From the sequence record MZ868638.1: a stretch of DNA of 64,000 nucleotides, one strand, 5' to 3'. Made by a program: the position numbers and the translations under genes. This document shows positions 3,187 through 45,659 of the stretch, one piece after another; within the stretch, counting starts at the first letter, position 1; the number at the start of each line of letters is the position of its first letter. Origin of the DNA: Escherichia phage vB_EcoM-pEK20. Under the pieces are notes generated by a model. It saw only the letters and a program-made list of their open reading frames with translations, had not been told where the DNA came from and did not search any database.

Positions 3187-3194
3187 TATTTATA
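3187..3194 (-). promoter_or_regulatory. late promoter TATAAATA upstream of gene 20
   Basis: Plus strand reads tatttata (reverse complement TATAAATA), about 30 nt upstream of the gene 20 start. Confidence 0.75.
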
Positions 3195-3242
3195 TGGACT
3201 TCTCCGTCATCACGGGAAGCTGGGGATTTCTCCCCAACCAGA

Positions 3243-3734
3243 TTATTCCCACCAATCAAGAGCAAGAGTTACTTCGAACGTTTCAATCTCGTTATTAGAA
3301 TCCCAATCAAGAGATACTTCACCAACGTTAGTAGGCCACAAGCCGACAATTTCAACTTCTTTAGTGACCGTTTTAGCATCACGAGCAAATTGACGAACGA
3401 TAGCAGACTTTTTATATTCAGCAGGTTTGCCACCGGTAATTTCATTACCTTGTCCTGCTGCAATACCTTGCCAATCAACAAATTTCTGACGAATGCTATG
3501 AGCATCATCGTTCATTACTGTAATAGTCCAATCATCGAATGTACGATCACCAGCCACGTTAATTTTACGGTTCATATAAGAAACAGGAACCTTTTCAACT
3601 ATCGCAGCAGGAAGAGCCGTAGCACGACACTGGAAGCTAAAGTTTTGCCCAAGATAAGAGATTTCTACTTCGAACAGGTTAGGGCGAGCGAAATCACCAG
3701 ATTCGAAGGCACGAGTTACGTCATCTACAAACAT
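3243..3734 (-). CDS. 19: tail tube protein gp19
   Basis: 163 aa, MFVDDVTRAFESGDFARPNLF...LALDWWE; near-identical to T4 gp19. Confidence 0.95.
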   Translation of the reverse strand: MFVDDVTRAFESGDFARPNLFEVEISYLGQNFSFQCRATALPAAIVEKVPVSYMNRKINVAGDRTFDDWTITVMNDDAHSIRQKFVDWQGIAAGQGNEITGGKPAEYKKSAIVRQFARDAKTVTKEVEIVGLWPTNVGEVSLDWDSNNEIETFEVTLALDWWE

Positions 3735-3846: not shown

Positions 3847-5829
3847 TTAACCACCTACAGCACCAATTAGTTCGTCGAAATCGGCACCAGTTGCTGTTGC
3901 TACAAAGTTCAATGTAATATAATTTATCGAGCGGGCAGGTTGTAAGTAGAAAGTAGCTACAAATTCATTACGGTCGATAACTGCTGGGGTGTTATTGGTA
4001 GTATCACAAACAACTTTAAAGTTATATACACCACCAAGAGCTTTAATACCCTGTAGATATTGAGAAGTCTCTGTACGGAAAGAAGAACGGGTAAATGCGT
4101 TGTTCAATTCAAACAGGCGATATTTAGATGCTGAACCAATGTTCGTTTTAACCATATTGAACAAACGACGAACGTTAATACGGTCAAATGGTGAAGGAAC
4201 AGAAGTGGCAGTTTTATCACCGTACAGAACATACCCATCACCACCGGTACCAGTGACAGGGTTAATAGCTTCCTGATACAAACGATCACGCTGCGCTTGA
4301 CGAGTTTCAATTGCAAGCTTAATAACGTTAAGAATTTGTCCACGGTTATAACCGGCAGGAGACATCCAAGGCTGAGAAATATTGTCTGTACGAGCACAAA
4401 GTCCAGCAATATCAGCAGCTAACGGAACCCAACGATTCACATCATTATATTTGTCATATTGATATTTATAGTTACCGTCAATAGCCGCGTAAGTAGAACT
4501 TACATTAAAGTTATTATCAGTGTAAGTTCCTGATGCAGTACGCCAATCAACCAGATTATCAACTGCACGATTAACAGGAATACCGACTATAGTTGCACGT
4601 GGTGGTGAGCAAAGAACCAAGCAATCTTGACGAGAATCACCAATTGCTACAACATGTTTCTGAACTGTAGAAGCAACTTCTAAAGATTCACCTGCACAAG
4701 AACCGGCAATAAACAACTGCGCATTAACAGATTCGCGGTCAGCAAACAAATCCCAAGCTTCCATTAAATCACCAGCGTCAACCGTTTCATTAGATGATAA
4801 GCCACCACCCAGTTTGATTACGCCAGAGAAACCTTTTGGCCAACCTTGTGCAGTAGCGAAAATATAATTGCTTGCGCCTTTAGCAAAGAAATCATCAATA
4901 AAGATATTACTACCATAAATATCGCGTTCACCGCGTTTAGTAGAAAGAACTACACTCTGGACTACAGCATCGTTACGACGAACGATAATTGCATATTGGT
5001 CATCAGTTTGTGGGCCATACCCAAATATTGCTTTAGCAGTAGATGCGCGAGTACCACCATCAGGATAAATTTTTAACTGGGCTGAAGCACCTTTGTCGTA
5101 GTCTGCTTTAGATACGATTTCAATTTCGAGCTGGTCGCCAAGTTCACCAGGATAAAGAGCAACTACGCCTGGGACGCCATATTTTTTAATAGATTCTTGG
5201 AAAGTTAGAGAAGTAATAGCTTCTTCAGAAGTTTCAACTTCAGTTAACAGAATACCGGAATCGGTTACGATAGAACCAATTGTAATAACGCCAGAAAGTC
5301 CAGAAGAAGAACTGGCAACTTCGGCGGTCCAGTTAGAACCCAATGCCGGATATTCATTAATTTCTTTTGCACGAGCAATAATTTTACCGGTTGGGATATA
5401 AATGTTAAGAATTTTACCATCGACATCAACTGAAGTGACATAACCATCTGCTTCAACAGTTTCGGTCAAATACTTAACGATAATTTTATCACCGACCGCA
5501 TAGTTACTACCAGCAGCAGAGATTGTGAATTCAATATTGCCTGCTACAGGAGATGAGTTCTTAGCAGTATCACGATCAACTGCGCGTACAACACGAAGGT
5601 CATTACCATATTGAAGGAAGTTCATAGCAGACATGAAATAATCTGCTGTATCCGTATTAGGAGTACCAAACATATCAACTAATGCAACTTCATCAGTGAT
5701 TTGTTTAATCTGGAATGCAGGTCCCCATTGGAATTTTCCAGCCAGGGCAGCAGTACCAGTGGAGTTATTAACTACAGTACTCTGTACGGTAGTTTCTTTG
5801 AGCTCAACGCCCGGAGAGAGAAGTGCCAT
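3847..5829 (-). CDS. 18: tail sheath protein gp18
   Basis: 660 aa, MALLSPGVELKETTVQSTVVNNSTGTAALAGKFQWGPAFQIK...; near-identical to T4 gp18. Confidence 0.95.
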   Translation of the reverse strand: MALLSPGVELKETTVQSTVVNNSTGTAALAGKFQWGPAFQIKQITDEVALVDMFGTPNTDTADYFMSAMNFLQYGNDLRVVRAVDRDTAKNSSPVAGNIEFTISAAGSNYAVGDKIIVKYLTETVEADGYVTSVDVDGKILNIYIPTGKIIARAKEINEYPALGSNWTAEVASSSSGLSGVITIGSIVTDSGILLTEVETSEEAITSLTFQESIKKYGVPGVVALYPGELGDQLEIEIVSKADYDKGASAQLKIYPDGGTRASTAKAIFGYGPQTDDQYAIIVRRNDAVVQSVVLSTKRGERDIYGSNIFIDDFFAKGASNYIFATAQGWPKGFSGVIKLGGGLSSNETVDAGDLMEAWDLFADRESVNAQLFIAGSCAGESLEVASTVQKHVVAIGDSRQDCLVLCSPPRATIVGIPVNRAVDNLVDWRTASGTYTDNNFNVSSTYAAIDGNYKYQYDKYNDVNRWVPLAADIAGLCARTDNISQPWMSPAGYNRGQILNVIKLAIETRQAQRDRLYQEAINPVTGTGGDGYVLYGDKTATSVPSPFDRINVRRLFNMVKTNIGSASKYRLFELNNAFTRSSFRTETSQYLQGIKALGGVYNFKVVCDTTNNTPAVIDRNEFVATFYLQPARSINYITLNFVATATGADFDELIGAVGG

Positions 5830-8182: not shown

Positions 8183-9007
8183 TTATTGTTTTCTAGGACC
8201 AGGAGGGGTTGGTGGAGTCGGGATTGGAATATCATGAGTATAAGTTTGTTCAACTTCACCATTCCAATCTTGTGCTTCAACGTCTCTCGGTTTAATTTCT
8301 GTATCAACTGATTCAAAAACACTGGCGGCAGTTTGAAGGTCTCGTTCATTAGCATGAAAATCAAGATAAGTCGTTTTAATAAGGCCTTCTGCTGCGCCTA
8401 CCGGAGGATACATCCATCCATTTACTTCAAATGTTAATGACCACTCTAAACGTCGACGGGATAAATTATCACCGTCTATTTGTTCATCCATTGCTGCTGC
8501 CATCCATACGACTTTAATATCCCTTTCAAATGGAATATCCTGCCCATATTGCTCAATCATAGTCGTATTAAAATGCGGCTGAAAATATGGAATAATTTGC
8601 TCAACGATTTGGAACATATCATCTTCATAACGAGTAAAGATGCTCAGTTCAAAAATCATTTTAATTGGTGATGGGTTGTATTGGTCTACAATATCCTTAG
8701 TCGATTTACTCAAAAGAGAGTTATTCAATATATTCGTTTTAAACGTTGGGTTATAAACGAAATCTACCATTTGGAGATTTATACGTGGTAGAATAGTTTC
8801 GACTTTAGCCACATCTTCTTGTGAGTTTATAGAGGTCCATTTATTAAGTTTCATCATAAAGTGCTCTTTAGATGCATACGTAATAGGAACTCTAATTAAT
8901 TTATTGCCTGTAGACAATTGACGGTTAACTTGGATATTTGAAAACAAATCGCCCATCATTGTGATATATCGCCTGAACGACGAGTTGTAAAAATAACCAA
9001 ACATCAT
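8183..9007 (-). CDS. 15: tail sheath stabilizer / tail completion protein gp15
   Basis: 274 aa; gene order between 14 and 16; matches T4 gp15 length. Confidence 0.88.
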   Translation of the reverse strand: MMFGYFYNSSFRRYITMMGDLFSNIQVNRQLSTGNKLIRVPITYASKEHFMMKLNKWTSINSQEDVAKVETILPRINLQMVDFVYNPTFKTNILNNSLLSKSTKDIVDQYNPSPIKMIFELSIFTRYEDDMFQIVEQIIPYFQPHFNTTMIEQYGQDIPFERDIKVVWMAAAMDEQIDGDNLSRRRLEWSLTFEVNGWMYPPVGAAEGLIKTTYLDFHANERDLQTAASVFESVDTEIKPRDVEAQDWNGEVEQTYTHDIPIPTPPTPPGPRKQ

Positions 9008-9056
9008 TTCTCCTAACCGGCCTTTCGACCGGTGTTTGCTTTATCTTATCTATTTA

Positions 9057-9821
9057 TTAATTCATAAACCCATCGTCAAATGGTGAATTTTGTCTACCAC
9101 GGTTGTTAACTACTACATACGGCTCAACGTATTCACTTGCCTCTGAATTGATTTGCTCAACTTCAGAATACTCATCGATATTAATGTCATGGATACCGTC
9201 AAGATTTCTAACAGGGTTAAGTTCCAAGTCACTAAATTCAGGTATATTGATACCTTCATTTTTCTGAAGCACCGGATTGATTTCTTCGCCAGAGTAAATA
9301 AACTTGCCTGCAGTAATTTTACGAATCGCATTTTTACCTACTTGATAGAATGGGTCATATGGTTCAACCCAGTTAATCTCAAACAAACTGTTGTCCATTG
9401 GGAAGTATATTAAATCACCTTCCTTGGGCTCCTGATTGTTGACCTGGTGTTTGAAAAGACCCGGGTTAATAGATAATGTAACTTCGTCTTGAACTTGCAT
9501 TCCGAAGTTGCTGAAGAACGATTTCGCTCCTTCATAACCTTCAAAAGAGTTCAGATATGCAGCAAATTTCCATGCTTTAGTAAATTTATTTTTAAGGTCC
9601 TCACCAAAGATAAGGTCCACGGCAACATATTCACGTGGAACATAAAAACATTCAATACCGCGCATCTGTATGCTTTCTGCCACTAGAACATCGGCTAATG
9701 TCTGACTATTCTCATAATTATTAAAATTGACAAATGGATTGAGGATTTCAGTCTCATTTGTCTGAGAATACCCACCACGATTTTCTAGTTTGGCGAAAAG
9801 ATTTTTATCATAAGTTGCCAT
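9057..9821 (-). CDS. 14: neck protein gp14
   Basis: 254 aa; T4 gene order. Confidence 0.88.
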
Positions 9822-31788: not shown

Positions 31789-31863
31789 GGCCCTGTAGCT
31801 CAATGGGAGAGCTGTCAGCTCATAACTGATAGGTAGCTGGATCGAAACCAGCCAGGGTCACCA
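31789..31863 (+). tRNA. tRNA with CAU anticodon (Met or lysidine-modified Ile type), CCA encoded
   Basis: Hand-folded cloverleaf: acceptor GGCCCTG/CAGGGTC, D-arm GCTC-AATGGGA-GAGC, anticodon arm GTCAG-CTCATAA-CTGAT, T-arm GCTGG-ATCGAAA-CCAGC. Confidence 0.75.
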
Positions 31864-31866
31864 ATC

Positions 31867-31943
<77 letters not shown>

Positions 31944-40059: not shown

Positions 40060-40292
40060 GTATAGCAATTTACATTAAATCAGAATCATGTGATAGTTAT
40101 CTGTACACATACGATAAAGATGTGTCAGAAGAAAAAATCAAAGACGATCTTAATATGGACCTTGATTTGTTCAGTCCTATTGCAGATTACAAACTTGCGG
40201 TCTCTAATAGTGAAAGTCCATCTAAAGAAACGCGCATTGAAGAATTTATGTCCGAATTAATGGCCAAATCATGGGACCGAGATGATGAGTAA
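40056..40292 (+). CDS. hypothetical small acidic protein (78 aa)
   Basis: ATG at 40056 after AGGAAT; the track ORF is extended upstream. Confidence 0.5.
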   Translation: MSIAIYIKSESCDSYLYTYDKDVSEEKIKDDLNMDLDLFSPIADYKLAVSNSESPSKETRIEEFMSELMAKSWDRDDE

Positions 40293-40740
40293 GAAAAATA
40301 AAGTGAAAGAACTATCAGCCGGTATTATTTTCCTTACCGAAAATAAAGAATTATTCATGGGTCGTGTAACTGGTTCTCGTCCTAAAGGTGCATTAGCTCA
40401 TCGGTGGGATATTCCTAAAGGCCGTGTCGAACCTGGCGAATCTCCTATTGAAGCCGCTATTCGTGAATGCGAAGAAGAAACTGGGTTTACACAATATGAT
40501 CCTGCCTTCCTGAAAGACCTAGGTGAACATCATTACTCAGACAATAAGAATATTCATCTGTTCCTATATACCATCCCTGTAGAGCACGAGCAATTCAGAA
40601 ACAGTGTTTGCAATTCCTATCATACATTCCCAGACGGACGTCAGATTCCTGAATTTGATGCATTCGCTTTAATTAAACCTTCTCAATGGGAATATGTAAT
40701 GGGCAAATCATTATATAAGGTGCTCACTACCCTCCTATAA
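40282..40740 (+). CDS. nudE: Nudix hydrolase NudE
   Basis: Nudix box GRVEPGESPIEAAIRECEEETGF; position immediately upstream of e as in T4. Confidence 0.88.
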   Translation: MMSKKNKVKELSAGIIFLTENKELFMGRVTGSRPKGALAHRWDIPKGRVEPGESPIEAAIRECEEETGFTQYDPAFLKDLGEHHYSDNKNIHLFLYTIPVEHEQFRNSVCNSYHTFPDGRQIPEFDAFALIKPSQWEYVMGKSLYKVLTTLL

Positions 40741-40774: not shown

Positions 40775-41263
40775 ATGAATATATTTGAAATGCTTCGTAA
40801 TGACGAAGGTCTTAGACTGACTTTATACAAAGACACTGAAGGCTTTTGGACGATTGGCATAGGCCATTTAGTAACAAAGAACCCGTCTTTAGCCGTAGCT
40901 AAAGCTGAACTTGACAGAATGATCGGACGTAAATGCAACGGTACAATTACCCTTGATGAGGCTGAAAAGTTATTTAATGAAGACGTTGATAAAGCTGTTC
41001 GCGGAATCTTGGGTAATGCTAAACTTAAACCGGTATATGATTCTTTAGATGCAGTTCGTCGATGTGCATTGGTCAATATGGTCTTCCAAATGGGTGTAGC
41101 AGGCGTCGCTGGTTTTACTAATTCTCTTCGTATGCTTCAACAGAAACGTTGGGACGAAGCGGCAGTAAATCTAGCCCAATCTAAATGGTATCGTCAGACA
41201 CCTAATCGCGCGAAACGCGTAATCTCAACATTTAAAACAGGAACTTGGAAAGCGTATATATGA
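40775..41263 (+). CDS. e: endolysin (T4 lysozyme e)
   Basis: [32 protein letters not shown]...; near-identical to T4 lysozyme, catalytic E11/D20/T26 context conserved. Confidence 0.95.
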
Positions 41264-41541
41264 AAACATATAGTGAATTTTTATCAGAATCTATTCTTAA
41301 CGAAGCTACTGACACATTTGCAACTAAGCTAGGTGCAGCTTTGGTTGAAGCTGAAAGTTTATTAGCACGTATTTCTGAACTTGCTAGTAAGATAGATACT
41401 CGCAAATTTGAGCGCACCAGTGATATCGTTAAGCTTGAAGCCTTGTTGCGTATGTGCGATAAACCGGAAGAAATCGCTAAGAACGGCTCGCTGATGAAAC
41501 AACGTCTTGAAAAATATATTTCAGGCGCTTCAGAAAAATAG
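41260..41541 (+). CDS. internal protein (ipII/ipIII-like) with capsid targeting sequence
   Basis: [16 protein letters not shown]... CTS with L-x-E sites; position between e and denV as in T4; ATGA overlap with e. Confidence 0.7.
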
Positions 41542-41542
41542 T

Positions 41543-41572
41543 GTTTACTTCCTCCAAGGGTTTTGATACTAT
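41543..41572 (+). promoter_or_regulatory. early promoter upstream of denV
   Basis: GTTTAC-N18-TACTAT; CCTCCAAG in the spacer pairs with CTTGGAGG covering the denV Shine-Dalgarno. Confidence 0.55.
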
Positions 41573-41599
41573 ACATTCATCAACTACTTGGAGGAAATT

Positions 41600-42013
41600 A
41601 TGACTCGTATCAATTTAACACTTGTTTCTGAACTGGCCGACCAACATCTTATGGCTGAGTATCGTGAATTACCACGCGTATTTGGTGCAGTCCGTAAACA
41701 TGTTCAAAACGGTAAACGTGTAAAGGATTTTAAAATCTCTCCAACATTTATCTTAGGCACAGGTCACGTAACATTCTTTTACGACAAACTCGAATTTTTA
41801 CGTTTACGCCAAATCGAGCTAATCGCTGAATGCTTGAAACGTGGTTTCAAAATCAAGGACACGACTGTCCAGGATATTTCCGACATCCCTGCCGAATTTC
41901 GTAATAATTATGTCCCGTCCGAAGCGTCCATTGCGATAAGTCAAGCACGCTTAGATGAAAAAATTGCTCAACGTCCGACTTGGTACAAATACTATGGTAA
42001 ATCAATTTACTAA
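41600..42013 (+). CDS. denV: endonuclease V (pyrimidine dimer DNA glycosylase/AP lyase)
   Basis: [35 protein letters not shown]...; near-identical to T4 endo V; ATG at 41600. Confidence 0.93.
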
Positions 42014-42019
42014 GGAAAA

Positions 42020-42136
42020 ATGAAAATGTATCAAGAATTTATCATTGAAGCAGAGGCCAAAGGTCCTAAAGTAGATGTTGACGATATTGGATATGATTTT
42101 AACAACTTCGGAATTATTTCTGGCGGTAAAGCTTAA
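42020..42136 (+). CDS. short internal-protein-like ORF (38 aa, CTS only), possible remnant
   Basis: MKMYQEFIIEAEAKGPK... begins like the CTS family but terminates early. Confidence 0.4.
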   Translation: MKMYQEFIIEAEAKGPKVDVDDIGYDFNNFGIISGGKA

Positions 42137-42139
42137 ACG

Positions 42140-42169
42140 GTTTACGCTTAAGTATTAATATGGTATAAT
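42140..42169 (+). promoter_or_regulatory. early promoter GTTTAC-N18-TGGTATAAT
   Basis: Consensus -35 and extended -10. Confidence 0.6.
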
Positions 42170-42199
42170 TGCTCTATCAAAACAAACAAGGAAACAAAA

Positions 42200-42514
42200 A
42201 TGAAAACCTATAAAGAATTTATTGCAGAATCCGCCAACCAACGCGTTGAAGGTGGTTATATTTGGATTGAACAAGTTGAGCCACCGAGCCGCACTTCTAC
42301 AGGTAAATGGAAAATTACTGTTGATGGTCCTGGTGGTAAACGTAGGACTCTTAAAGAAATTAATGGGTACTATGAAGAAGCTCTTTCGGATGCAGGAACT
42401 TACATGATGCAAATCATGATTAAAAACCCTGAAAACCGTTTTGCAGCTAAAGTCTTCCGCCGTATTGGTAATAAACTTTATGATGCATATTCTAAAAACT
42501 TCCCTAAAGAATAA
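42200..42514 (+). CDS. internal-protein-like protein with CTS (104 aa)
   Basis: N-terminus MKTYKEFIAE. Confidence 0.7.
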   Translation: MKTYKEFIAESANQRVEGGYIWIEQVEPPSRTSTGKWKITVDGPGGKRRTLKEINGYYEEALSDAGTYMMQIMIKNPENRFAAKVFRRIGNKLYDAYSKNFPKE

Positions 42515-42540
42515 CATAAATTAAAACAATAGGAAAAAAA

Positions 42541-42843
42541 ATGAAAACATATCAAGAATTTATTACTGAAGCGCGAGTGAGTGCAGGTAAATTAGAAGCC
42601 GCTATAAATAAAAAGGCCCATTCATTTCATGATTTGTCCGATAAAGACCGTAAGAAACTTGTAAGCCTTTATATTGACAAAGAGCGTATTCTCGCTCTTC
42701 CTGGCGCTAATGAAGGTAAACAGGCCAAGCCTTTGAATGCCGTCGAAAAGAAAATTGATAACTTTGCTTCTAAATTCGGTATGTCTATGGATGACCTTCA
42801 GCAAGCGGCTATCGAAGCAGCTAAAGTAATTAAAGGTAAATAA
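42541..42843 (+). CDS. internal-protein-like protein with CTS (100 aa)
   Basis: N-terminus MKTYQEFITEA. Confidence 0.7.
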   Translation: MKTYQEFITEARVSAGKLEAAINKKAHSFHDLSDKDRKKLVSLYIDKERILALPGANEGKQAKPLNAVEKKIDNFASKFGMSMDDLQQAAIEAAKVIKGK

Positions 42844-42845
42844 CA

Positions 42846-42875
42846 GTTTACTTTCTCCTAGAATTGTGATAGTAT
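42846..42875 (+). promoter_or_regulatory. early promoter, duplicate of the denV promoter
   Basis: GTTTAC-N18-TAGTAT; overall similarity to 41543-41600. Confidence 0.5.
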
Positions 42876-42900
42876 ATTCATAATTACTTGGATGGGTAAA

Positions 42901-42999
42901 ATGACTTATATTAATTTGACTTTAGTATCTAAATTTGCTGATCAACATTTAATCGCCGAATACTGTGAATTGCCACGTGTTTTTTGGTATAATTCGTAA
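42901..42999 (+). pseudogene. truncated duplicate of the denV 5' end
   Basis: [28 protein letters not shown] matches denV residues 1-28, then diverges and stops; denV-like RKHV continues in another frame. Confidence 0.6.
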
Positions 43000-43007
43000 A
43001 CACGTGG
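42973..43007 (+). repeat. perfect 10-bp inverted repeat CCACGTGTTT...AAACACGTGG with TGGTATAAT in the loop
   Basis: Read directly; lies at the breakpoint of the denV remnant. Confidence 0.7.
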
Positions 43008-43172
43008 CAAAAATATTTACATTCAAATAAAATGGGAACAACCTGGACCTCATGATTCTATGAGGGATTCCCGCCAACCTGTAATAAGGTCGAGCCCAAG
43101 TGCGGTAATGGGTAAATACAGAAATGGACAATTCATGCGCCACGGAACGGCCCCAACCTTAAGAGAAACTAA

Positions 43173-43712
43173 ATGAGAACATTTTTAACCGGACCTTATC
43201 TATCCCTGATGAATGCTTTTACACACCATTCTGATGCTAGAGTAGAAGAAATTTGTAAGAACGGTTATGCCCCACCATTTGAAGACGTACTCAAGCAGTA
43301 CTGTACACTTCGTTTAGACGGTGGCAGACAATCCGGTAAATCAATTGCTGTGACTAATTTTGCTGCTAATTGGTTGTATGATGGCGGAACGGTTATTGTT
43401 CTTTCTAATACTTCAGCTTATGCTAAAATTTCTGCTGGCAACATTGAAAAAGAATTTTCTCGTTATTCTAGCGACGATATTCGATTCCGTTTATTTACTG
43501 ATTCTGTTCGTAGTTTTATTGGTAATGAAGGACATAAATTCCGTGGATTAACACTTTCTCGTATTCTGTACATAATTGACGAGCCTATTAAAGCTCCTGA
43601 TATGGATAAGATTTACGACATCCATATTAAAACAGTCCAACACTGTTGCAAAAGCAAATATTGCATCGGCGGTAATGCTCGTCCTCAATTTTTTGTGATT
43701 GGAATGCAATGA
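43173..43712 (+). CDS. small P-loop NTPase-like protein (179 aa)
   Basis: Walker A GGRQSGKS and Walker B-like ILYIIDEP. Confidence 0.6.
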   Translation: MRTFLTGPYLSLMNAFTHHSDARVEEICKNGYAPPFEDVLKQYCTLRLDGGRQSGKSIAVTNFAANWLYDGGTVIVLSNTSAYAKISAGNIEKEFSRYSSDDIRFRLFTDSVRSFIGNEGHKFRGLTLSRILYIIDEPIKAPDMDKIYDIHIKTVQHCCKSKYCIGGNARPQFFVIGMQ

Positions 43713-44017
43713 TGACCGCTATTGAAGTTTTTGAGTACTGTTATAACAGCCCAGTATGCAATAAAAGGGCCCTTGTAGAAAATTATGAGATTTACCATTT
43801 TAAACCTAAACGATACCGTTTGACTAAAGGTCCGTTCGCAGGGCAGCAGGTTCTTTGTACTGCTCCTAATGCACGGTTGATGACTAGTATTCCACATTTC
43901 AAAATGGAATTTATTGATGGGCCATTTAAAGGATTAATCACTCAAAGTTTAATGGCGTTTAATTCCGACCCATTTTTGATTAAAGAAAAAACTTGGATAA
44001 ATTTATTTTCTAATTGA
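43709..44017 (+). CDS. hypothetical protein (102 aa)
   Basis: ORF with ATGA overlap to the upstream gene. Confidence 0.55.
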   Translation: MMTAIEVFEYCYNSPVCNKRALVENYEIYHFKPKRYRLTKGPFAGQQVLCTAPNARLMTSIPHFKMEFIDGPFKGLITQSLMAFNSDPFLIKEKTWINLFSN

Positions 44018-44845: not shown

Positions 44846-45144
44846 TGGCTCAAATCCTATCAGGCTTTGGAACTCATTATGAAGCATCTCGACGCATAAC
44901 TGAAAGCAATCCTTTTGGCCTTGTTCCGAAGCACAAGAAAATTCAAAGCCTTGATGACTTTGAGAATCGCCTATGGGCCCTCTTTAATGAGTACAAGGCA
45001 TATCTGAAAGAAGACGCTGACGATTGTCTTGAAGAAGATGAGATTGCGTATTACGAACAACGCCTTGAACAGCTCAAGAACTTCCACCAGGTTCGTGACG
45101 AAGTATCTAAAGCAGTTAAAAAGTTAATTCCTTTCAAAGAGTAG
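44845..45144 (+). CDS. hypothetical protein (99 aa)
   Basis: ATG at 44845 (TAATG overlap) after GAGGAAAAA. Confidence 0.55.
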
Positions 45145-45172
45145 TTTACTTCTCCTCTAGTTGTGTTACTAT
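45144..45172 (+). promoter_or_regulatory. early promoter upstream of regB
   Basis: GTTTAC-N17-TACTAT; CTCTAGTTG in the spacer pairs with CAACTAGAG covering the regB Shine-Dalgarno. Confidence 0.6.
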
Positions 45173-45200
45173 AGACCTGTCAACTAGAGGAGAAATCAAA

Positions 45201-45659
45201 ATGACTATCAATTCAGACGTTTTTATCCGCCGCAATAAACTCCGTCGAATCTTTGAAACGGAGTTCCGCAAAATAAATGCCAGTATAAAAGATGCTGCAA
45301 AGTCTCTTGGACTACCGGGCTTTCATATCAAGTATTCTCAACATCTCTTAGATCGTGCCATCCAGAGAGAAATAGATGAGAATTACGTTTTTGAATTATT
45401 TCATAAAGTAAAAAATCATGTTAAAGAAGTTGCAGAATTTTTATCAATGCCGGCACGTCCAGATGTTGATGAAGATTTTGTCGAAGGTGTCGAATATCGC
45501 CCAGGCCGTTTAGAAATAACTGATGGAAATCTTTGGTTAGGACTTACAGTTTGTCGCGAAAATCCAGCATTCAAAATGAAGACTCTTCAATGCAGAATGG
45601 CTATTATTAACAATAAACGACTACCAGGAAAAGCTTCTAAAGCAGTGATTAAAATCTAG
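45201..45659 (+). CDS. regB: RegB sequence-specific endoribonuclease
   Basis: MTINSDVFIRRNKLRRIFETEFRKIN...YSQHLLDRAIQREIDENYVFELFHK; near-identical to remembered T4 RegB. Confidence 0.9.
   Translation: MTINSDVFIRRNKLRRIFETEFRKINASIKDAAKSLGLPGFHIKYSQHLLDRAIQREIDENYVFELFHKVKNHVKEVAEFLSMPARPDVDEDFVEGVEYRPGRLEITDGNLWLGLTVCRENPAFKMKTLQCRMAIINNKRLPGKASKAVIKI

Follow-up and report, generated by a model that had tools for sequence, protein, structure and literature searches.

The internal-protein (IP) loci of T-even phages are described as hyperplastic, with ip genes that vary in number and order, have a conserved N-terminal leader in common, and are flanked by early-promoter-plus-inverted-repeat cassettes (Repoila et al. 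1994, as summarized in PMC2839356 and PMC4122927). A different arrangement is found in phages RB49 and phi1, in which the PeSL cassettes are short conserved regulatory sequences that serve as recombination sites (Arbiol et al. 2010, PMC2839356; Comeau et al. 2014, PMC4122927); the authors of these studies regard the T-even IP elements as analogues, not homologues, of the PeSLs (PMC4122927, PMC2839356). Microhomology deletions also occur in T4, such as those between genes 56 and dda, according to work cited in PMC2839356.

The window analyzed here (a stretch of 64,000 nucleotides) contains the same e - ip genes - denV locus. The region is that of a Mosigvirus (an RB69-like T-even), with phage JS09 as the best match (98.3% identity over 41200-43800), and the JS09 annotation ties the ip10 gene and a short denV-like open reading frame (ORF) to the phage Pol sequences of Repoila et al. 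1994. That ORF lies downstream of an intact resident denV, and on the alignments presented here it is very probably part of the decaying remnant of a second denV, imported from a Tequatrovirus and broken by a 292-bp deletion. The gene layout derives from the ORF list and the annotations of JS09, phi25-307, RB69, and T4, and the features are as follows.

40282-40740, plus strand: nudE (ORF list and relatives' annotation).
Ending at 41263, plus strand: e, lysozyme (ORF list and relatives' annotation).
Ending at 41541, plus strand: ipIII-like internal head protein gene (ORF list and relatives' annotation).
41543-41599, plus strand: early promoter and leader of the resident denV (GTTTAC, -10-like TACTAT, inverted repeat).
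41600-42013, plus strand: resident intact denV, 137 aa, a Mosigvirus/T4-type allele.
42020-42136, plus strand: shortened internal-protein gene of the RB69 ORF125c type, 38 aa.
42200-42514, plus strand: ip10-like internal-protein gene, Mosigvirus backbone, 96.7% identical to RB69.
42541-42843, plus strand: ipII internal-protein gene, the left part of the Tequatrovirus-derived patch.
42846-42900, plus strand: early promoter and leader of the imported denV (GTTTAC at 42846-42851, -10-like TAGTAT at 42870-42875).
42901-43011, plus strand: 5' remnant (codons 1-37) of the imported Tequatrovirus-type denV, from alignment to intact alleles.
42970-43010, no strand assigned: perfect 13-bp hairpin with a 15-nt loop (arms at 42970-42982 and 42998-43010).
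43006-43011, plus strand: deletion junction, a lone surviving GGCAAA, from alignment to intact alleles.
43012-43030, plus strand: 3' remnant (last codons) of the imported denV, out of frame, with the original stop codon mutated.
43034-43153, plus strand: conserved structured leader RNA of vs.8, ~120 nt, a complete match to the covariance model.
43173-43712, plus strand: vs.8, 179 aa, a P-loop protein (phrog_1488) and the first downstream backbone gene.

The ORF125c-type gene is 86 aa long in phi25-307, compared with 38 aa here, its middle having been lost with the frame kept, and the ip10-like gene has its own early promoter at 42141-42169.

An initial annotation of this DNA reported a second promoter-leader-ATG unit with the start of denV, and every element it listed is present in the sequence. 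The promoter has a -35/-10 spacing of 18 nt, the Shine-Dalgarno sequence of the leader is weakened (GGAT), and the ATG at 42901 opens a 32-aa ORF with 28 denV-like residues followed by WYNS and a stop. The annotation was right to recognize a denV start but too narrow in limiting it to residues 1-28, in that the homology extends to codon 37; the codons for RKHV that it placed in another frame are indeed found at 42994-43005 (CGT AAA CAC GTG). The frame break at codon 28/29 results from one extra T in the run at 42980-42985, which is T6 in the window and in AV110, and T5 in JS09, TU01, and all of the intact alleles. Identity to denV is clear for codons 1-37 and the last codons, and a Pfam search with the relic returned no match. 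A functional full-length denV has ~138 codons in one frame, compared with the relic ORF of 32 aa, from which 292 bp have gone; about 97 of the 138 codons are absent, and the frame is shifted.

The relic is clearly related to the resident denV, and aligning the two segments (42846-43005 with 41543-41703) gives 73% nucleotide identity over 163 columns. Searched against the whole window, this is the sole strong second match (E = 1.5e-18). Two significantly similar units, on the same strand and 1303 bp apart, would fit a local duplication (tandem or segmental) in which the promoter and 5' coding region of the resident gene were copied and later diverged. However, the resident copy is not the relic's closest relative, since the 73% identity compares with 91-95% to heterologous Tequatrovirus alleles, and the flanks (ipII upstream; the denV 3' end and a Tequatrovirus-class leader downstream) also match the Tequatrovirus locus, making duplication highly improbable. 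Thus, of the duplication or recombination footprint that the initial annotation proposed, recombination in the internal-protein/denV region stands and duplication of the resident gene falls. In a search of 50,697 phage records, 42846-43011 is 91 to 93% identical to the promoter and 5' denV of hundreds of Tequatroviruses, including ESh16, PE37, phiD1, and CM8. The DenV protein of the imported type is identical to the resident or T4 DenV at only 105 to 107 of 138 positions, and the resident and T4 proteins share 125 of 137.

Comparison with related T4-like genomes, which had been suggested as a check, shows a collinear ipII-denV-vs.8 arrangement in JE01, CM8, and TB004. In the multiple alignment, the ipII, promoter, fragment, leader, and vs.8 of the window are collinear with the Tequatrovirus ipII-denV-vs.8 segment, which is also the T4 gene order, and the relic reads as a denV with one gap, resuming at the last denV codons and continuing through the denV-vs.8 spacer. 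This collinearity, together with the sequence identity, argues that the relic is a horizontally acquired second allele that later suffered a deletion.

The Tequatrovirus-derived patch spans ~42535-43145 inside the Mosigvirus (RB69/JS09-like) backbone. The window is 93 to 98% identical to RB69 on both sides of the patch, and RB69 lacks 42572-43073. Compared with JE01 and TB004, the backbone is only 71 to 78% identical, whereas 42505-43011 is 94.9% identical, so the patch is far closer to the donor lineage than its surroundings are and is a recent import; ipII is nearly identical to the ipII of JE01 and TB004. The left crossover would lie at ~42535-42545, at the ATG and leader-peptide codons common to all ip genes (repeat family D1), and the right crossover back to Mosigvirus sequence probably falls at ~43141-43150, in the last hairpin of the vs.8 RNA leader. 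The 5' part of this leader is of the Tequatrovirus class and arrived with the patch, and in the ~30 nt just ahead of the vs.8 ATG the window exactly matches Mosigvirus sequences, among them phi25-307 and L060.

The position of the relic invites the converse reading that it is the ancestral denV and that the intact upstream gene is the newcomer, since it sits where T4 has denV, after ipII and directly before vs.8. We consider this unlikely, because RB69 and other Mosigviruses have the upstream denV only and lack the patch, and because the patch is ~95% identical to Tequatroviruses (nearly 100% in its ipII part), compared with 71 to 78% for the backbone. With the downstream copy as the import, the Mosigvirus ancestor already had a denV, placed between its ipIII-like gene and its ip array, when it received a ~900-bp Tequatrovirus patch comprising ipII, the denV promoter, denV, and the denV-vs.8 leader. 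By parsimony we infer transfer from Tequatrovirus to Mosigvirus, and the patch may have come by way of another Mosigvirus. Phages of the phi25-307 type have ipII and the promoter in common with the window and lack the denV remnant; in these, no denV is left, and a new ip gene follows the promoter, separated from it by the 3' third of a leader of the Tequatrovirus class.

The second denV lost 292 bp between two GGCAAA repeats, removing codons ~36-133 and shifting the frame, with slippage or short-homology recombination as the probable event. In intact JE01, CM8, and L011 alleles, GGCAAA is present as a direct repeat at nucleotides 105 and 397 of the coding sequence, 292 bp apart. The repeat occurs at both deletion ends in intact alleles, one copy is left in the window, and donor homology flanks the junction with synteny. 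When the query is extended to vs.8, the Tequatroviruses match in two pieces that span 613 bp, compared with 329 bp in the window, which points to a deletion within the window's copy. The frameshift caused by the loss of 292 bp also explains how the ORF ends in JS09. The true structural break, at 43006-43011, overlaps the end of the 3' hairpin arm. The Tequatrovirus TB004 has independently lost an internal part of its denV, in a deletion whose 5' end is ~3 nt further on and has a microhomology of AATGG. That two deletions end beside the hairpin is suggestive of a hot spot, although two events are too few to claim one. We also considered the hairpin as the cause of the deletion and rejected this, as the hairpin was not part of the segment that was lost and only two independent events are available to judge by.

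The inverted repeat reported at 42973-43007 is present and perfect, and is longer than was described, extending over 42970-43010. The arm TTGCCACGTGTTT (42970-42982) pairs with AAACACGTGGCAA (42998-43010), and the loop contains TGGTATAAT (42985-42993), as had been noticed. The DNA folding energy is -13.9 kcal/mol (z = -5.1), and none of 200 shuffled sequences is as stable. The window has five distinct perfect hairpins of at least 10 bp, and 11 ten-base inverted-repeat matches compared with ~1.8 in shuffles, so the relic hairpin is uncommon but not unique. Its arms are codons for (L)PRVF and KHVA. The palindrome had been thought to coincide with the break, but identical perfect arms are present in an intact denV allele (L011/L019), and it therefore predates the deletion. 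Among other alleles, JE01 has one G·T pair in the stem and CM8 has three, and the resident allele has no hairpin. The palindrome is thus a by-product of codon choice (PRVF versus KHVA) in the imported allele.

Three separately deposited genome records, those of JS09, AV110, and TU01, share the deletion junction of the window, and two denV-like places occur in only five of 754 records with a denV-like N terminus. The intermediate that the import reading predicts, with both denV genes intact, was not found among the sampled genomes (754 denV-like records), which counts against that reading. Palindromes and homopolymer runs are classic sites of error, and the extra T does fall in a T run, but an assembly or sequencing artefact at the palindrome, a concern raised at the outset, is scarcely credible given the identical junction in the three other records, a T6 run common to the window and AV110, and flanks that both match real Tequatrovirus sequence.

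The window and these three phages represent successive stages of decay. Decay has gone least far in TU01, which has only the R3Y replacement, a 3' arm of AAACATGTGG that leaves the hairpin imperfect, and the loop sequence TATAGT that intact JE01 also has. In JS09 and the window, E11K, L12F, R22C, and V31I bring the replacements to five in all, and the two share a CAT>CAC change that perfects the hairpin and a GTT>ATT change that makes TATAAT. In AV110, the 3' arm is changed to AAACGCGTGG, which breaks the hairpin, and one base is lost between the Shine-Dalgarno sequence and the ATG. The remnant has thus drifted after the deletion, from the TU01 state through the replacements seen in JS09 and the window to the extra T (window and AV110) and the loss of the hairpin (AV110). 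Over codons 1-37, the four intact alleles differ among themselves at no nonsynonymous and zero to four synonymous nucleotides, whereas the relic differs from them at seven nucleotides in replaced codons and one to four synonymous nucleotides. Replacements accumulate where the intact alleles have none, which argues for relaxed constraint on the relic, and the five replaced N-terminal residues (R3Y, E11K, L12F, R22C, and V31I, all relative to the intact alleles) are not those of a sequence under purifying selection. Arginines 3 and 22 are important residues of T4 endonuclease V.

Some function could be imagined for the remnant, either as a short N-terminal DenV peptide or with the hairpin and the extended -10 in TGGTATAAT acting as a new promoter or attenuator for vs.8. 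In favor of this, the annotations of JS09 (JS09_060) and TU01 both list the ORF as a gene and label it endonuclease V, the loop holds a consensus extended -10, and the hairpin is stable. Nonetheless, the ORF varies among the four carriers (45 aa in JS09, 32 aa and frameshifted in the window, and the same extra T in AV110), replacements fall at R3 and R22, TATAAT and the perfect stem are absent from TU01, and the stem is broken in AV110. There is also no U-run after the stem, and the hairpin has no G/C tracts. We therefore regard a functional remnant as very unlikely; the coding remnant appears to be inert, and the JS09_060 and TU01 ORFs should be corrected to pseudogenes, not endonuclease V genes.

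The 292-bp deletion is wholly inside the coding sequence and spares both the early promoter and the complete vs.8 leader. The retained promoter probably still feeds early transcription of vs.8 and the genes that follow. In the record of fPS-2, this promoter sequence bears the label "predicted early promoter", and in phi25-307 it is upstream of, and drives, a different ip gene. The 18-nt spacing counts against this reading, as does a generic sigma-70 scan, which flagged none of the denV-type promoters, that of the relic included. These promoters have the GTTTAC of the T4 early consensus and not TTGACA.

Adjoining the relic downstream, between the denV stop and the vs.8 start, is the structured leader RNA. 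It is conserved at the nucleotide level in T4, RB69, T4-like phages of Klebsiella and Enterobacter, and unrelated viral contigs, with an invariant core of CCUGUAAUAAGGUCGAGC...GCGGUAA. It is not as coding sequence that the stretch is conserved, since the frame in which these bases are read differs between phages. The search for loci related to vs.8 gave only six, and copies of the RNA were collected with DNA-pattern scans. Among 61 unique copies, the 5-bp helix that closes the first hairpin is formed in 87%, compared with 22% of shuffled controls, in at least ten different sequence combinations, and a pair in the second helix takes the forms A-U (32 copies), U-A (10), U·G (8), and C-G (6).

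RNAalifold on a MAFFT alignment of all of the RNA classes returned almost no structure because the variable hairpins misalign, and a model built from one class was used instead. A structure drawn by hand on 25 RB69-class sequences is 98.2% paired, with four pairs changed on both sides. The covariance model from the RB69 class alone finds the T4 class at 75 to 82 bits (E ~1e-16 to 1e-18), and it also detects the copy in the window, a tandem pair in L088, and three classes of greater divergence. In the 32 non-seed matches, 22 of 35 pairs change on both sides, compared with 10.8 in shuffles (none of 500 reaches this number), and the covariation score is 0.182, compared with 0.055 when shuffled and at most 0.046 when slid; the alignment for this test was fitted to the model, which favors the structure. 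Rfam 15 gave no hits for window positions 41000-44000 at E<=1, and only noise and tRNAs for 42990-43200 and for L035 at E<=10. A literature search with the core sequence found no paper, and the RNA may be among the unnamed candidates in a catalogue of >10,000 viral structured RNAs (PMC10690425). The T4 copy (NC_000866, 64819-64938, complement) is inside the annotated vs.8 coding sequence, which is 219 aa long, compared with lengths of 179 or 167 aa among relatives; the annotated T4 start is at 64912, and the conserved ATG is at 64792. An intrinsic terminator and an anti-repressor gene come after the element in one group of small phages.

Our guess is that this RNA is a cis-regulatory leader. 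A broader, tentative proposal, which we think possible without favoring it, is that a regulatory module was transplanted, with the relic at its 5' edge, and that this module is composed of the Tequatrovirus early promoter and the leader RNA, which would control vs.8 and the genes that follow, that the RNA represents a new class of phage cis-regulatory RNA (riboswitch-like or protein binding), and that the position of the denV deletion reflects selection to keep both parts. The RNA, although incidental to the denV question, is the more valuable outcome, as it is absent from Rfam and present in T4, the best-studied phage.

The relic itself is an ordinary pseudogene in the known hyperplastic internal-protein locus, a hot spot of recombination, and it offers a clean, datable case in which a T-even module was imported, a gene became redundant, and the extra copy was lost by a short-repeat deletion. 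The IP cassette (GTTTAC...TAnTAT, with arms that pair the spacer with the Shine-Dalgarno sequence) is present at the resident denV, in the regB region, and at T4 denV, and its stems differ in sequence between sites yet remain complementary. At the resident denV, the inverted repeat is CTTCCTCCAAG / CTTGGAGGAAa, pairing the spacer region with the Shine-Dalgarno sequence; the relic's cassette is degenerate. Unlike in IP cassette shuffling, the probable crossovers here are outside the promoter cassette, one at the coding start of the ip leader peptide and the other within the vs.8 leader RNA, and the relic comes from a repair gene that suffered a deletion and is no ip cassette. The locus resembles the PeSL system in that conserved recombination sites shuffle small non-essential genes of hyperplastic regions. 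However, a PeSL is an intergenic sigma-70-like promoter with a G/C-tract stem-loop terminator, whereas the relic hairpin is within coding sequence, 120 nt past the promoter. As in the T4 short-repeat deletions, the end points are in a short direct repeat (GGCAAA) of which one copy is retained. The junction differs from those deletions in having no GGGC/GCCC motif and in the placement of the hairpin, which is outside the deleted segment; because it is not between the GGCAAA repeats, hairpin-assisted deletion is unsupported.

The denV relic, which comprises the 5' and 3' remnants of an imported Tequatrovirus-type denV, is annotated as a gene in two public records.

L001 (JS09) 3193-3330: denV relic, annotated as JS09_060
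L045 (TU01) 1558-1686: denV relic, annotated as a gene

It is labelled there as 'endonuclease V N-glycosylase UV repair enzyme' or 'endonuclease' but is a pseudogene, and in the AV110 record it is without annotation. An internally deleted denV is also present in a Tequatrovirus, Shigella phage TB004.

L005 (TB004) 2560-2700: internally deleted denV

This deletion is independent of the JS09-type deletion: its junction joins GGCA to AATGG, with the 5' end ∼3 nt from the JS09-type junction, and the denV hairpin in TB004 is perfect through change on both arms (CCGCGTG / CACGCGG).

The relic locus of pEK20 has a second internal deletion, which shortens an internal-protein (ip) gene of the ORF125c type.

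Window 42020-42136: shortened ORF125c-type gene, 38 aa

The gene lacks its middle 48 codons, with no change of frame. The product is annotated as 36 aa in JS09 and TU01 and is 86 aa in phi25-307; RB69 and AV110 are annotated with full-length versions. Another arrangement is seen in phi25-307-type Mosigviruses, in which the denV-type promoter of the relic is joined to the last ∼70 nt of a Tequatrovirus-class vs.8 leader.

L002 (phi25-307) 3909-4030: promoter-leader fusion

The fusion then runs into a different ip gene at a shared ATGA-AACAT start, and vs.8 in these phages is preceded by a second leader, of the RB69 class.

Early-promoter cassettes lie upstream of denV and of the regB region.

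Window 41543-41605: cassette upstream of resident denV
Window 45143-45206: cassette upstream of the regB region
L007 2850-2925, minus strand: cassette upstream of T4 denV

All three share GTTTAC, a -10-like TACTAT, and a 10-11-bp inverted repeat, which would sequester the GGAG Shine-Dalgarno in read-through transcripts. The stems vary in sequence among cassettes but retain complementarity, as in the arms TCTCCTGTAG/CTACAGGAGA of the T4 denV cassette and TTCTCCTCTAG/CTAGAGGAGAA of the regB cassette.

The window also carries adjacent tRNA genes, as expected for a T-even tRNA region.

Window 31789-31943: tRNA-Met (CAT) and tRNA-Arg (TCT)

Directly upstream of vs.8 is a conserved structured RNA of ∼120 nt.

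Window 43034-43153, plus strand: structured RNA
NC_000866 64819-64938, complement: T4 copy
L088 (viral contig) 8968-9080 and 9103-9220: tandem copies

An invariant core, CCUGUAAUAAGGUCGAGC...GCGGUAA, is surrounded by covarying helices. A search of Rfam 15 gave no match, and a literature search found the core sequence in no paper. The RNA is present in T4, RB69, many T4-like phages, and unrelated viral contigs, with a tandem arrangement in one case; one group has an intrinsic terminator and an anti-repressor gene after it. In the T4 annotation, the region of this RNA is assigned to the N-terminal 40 aa of vs.8.
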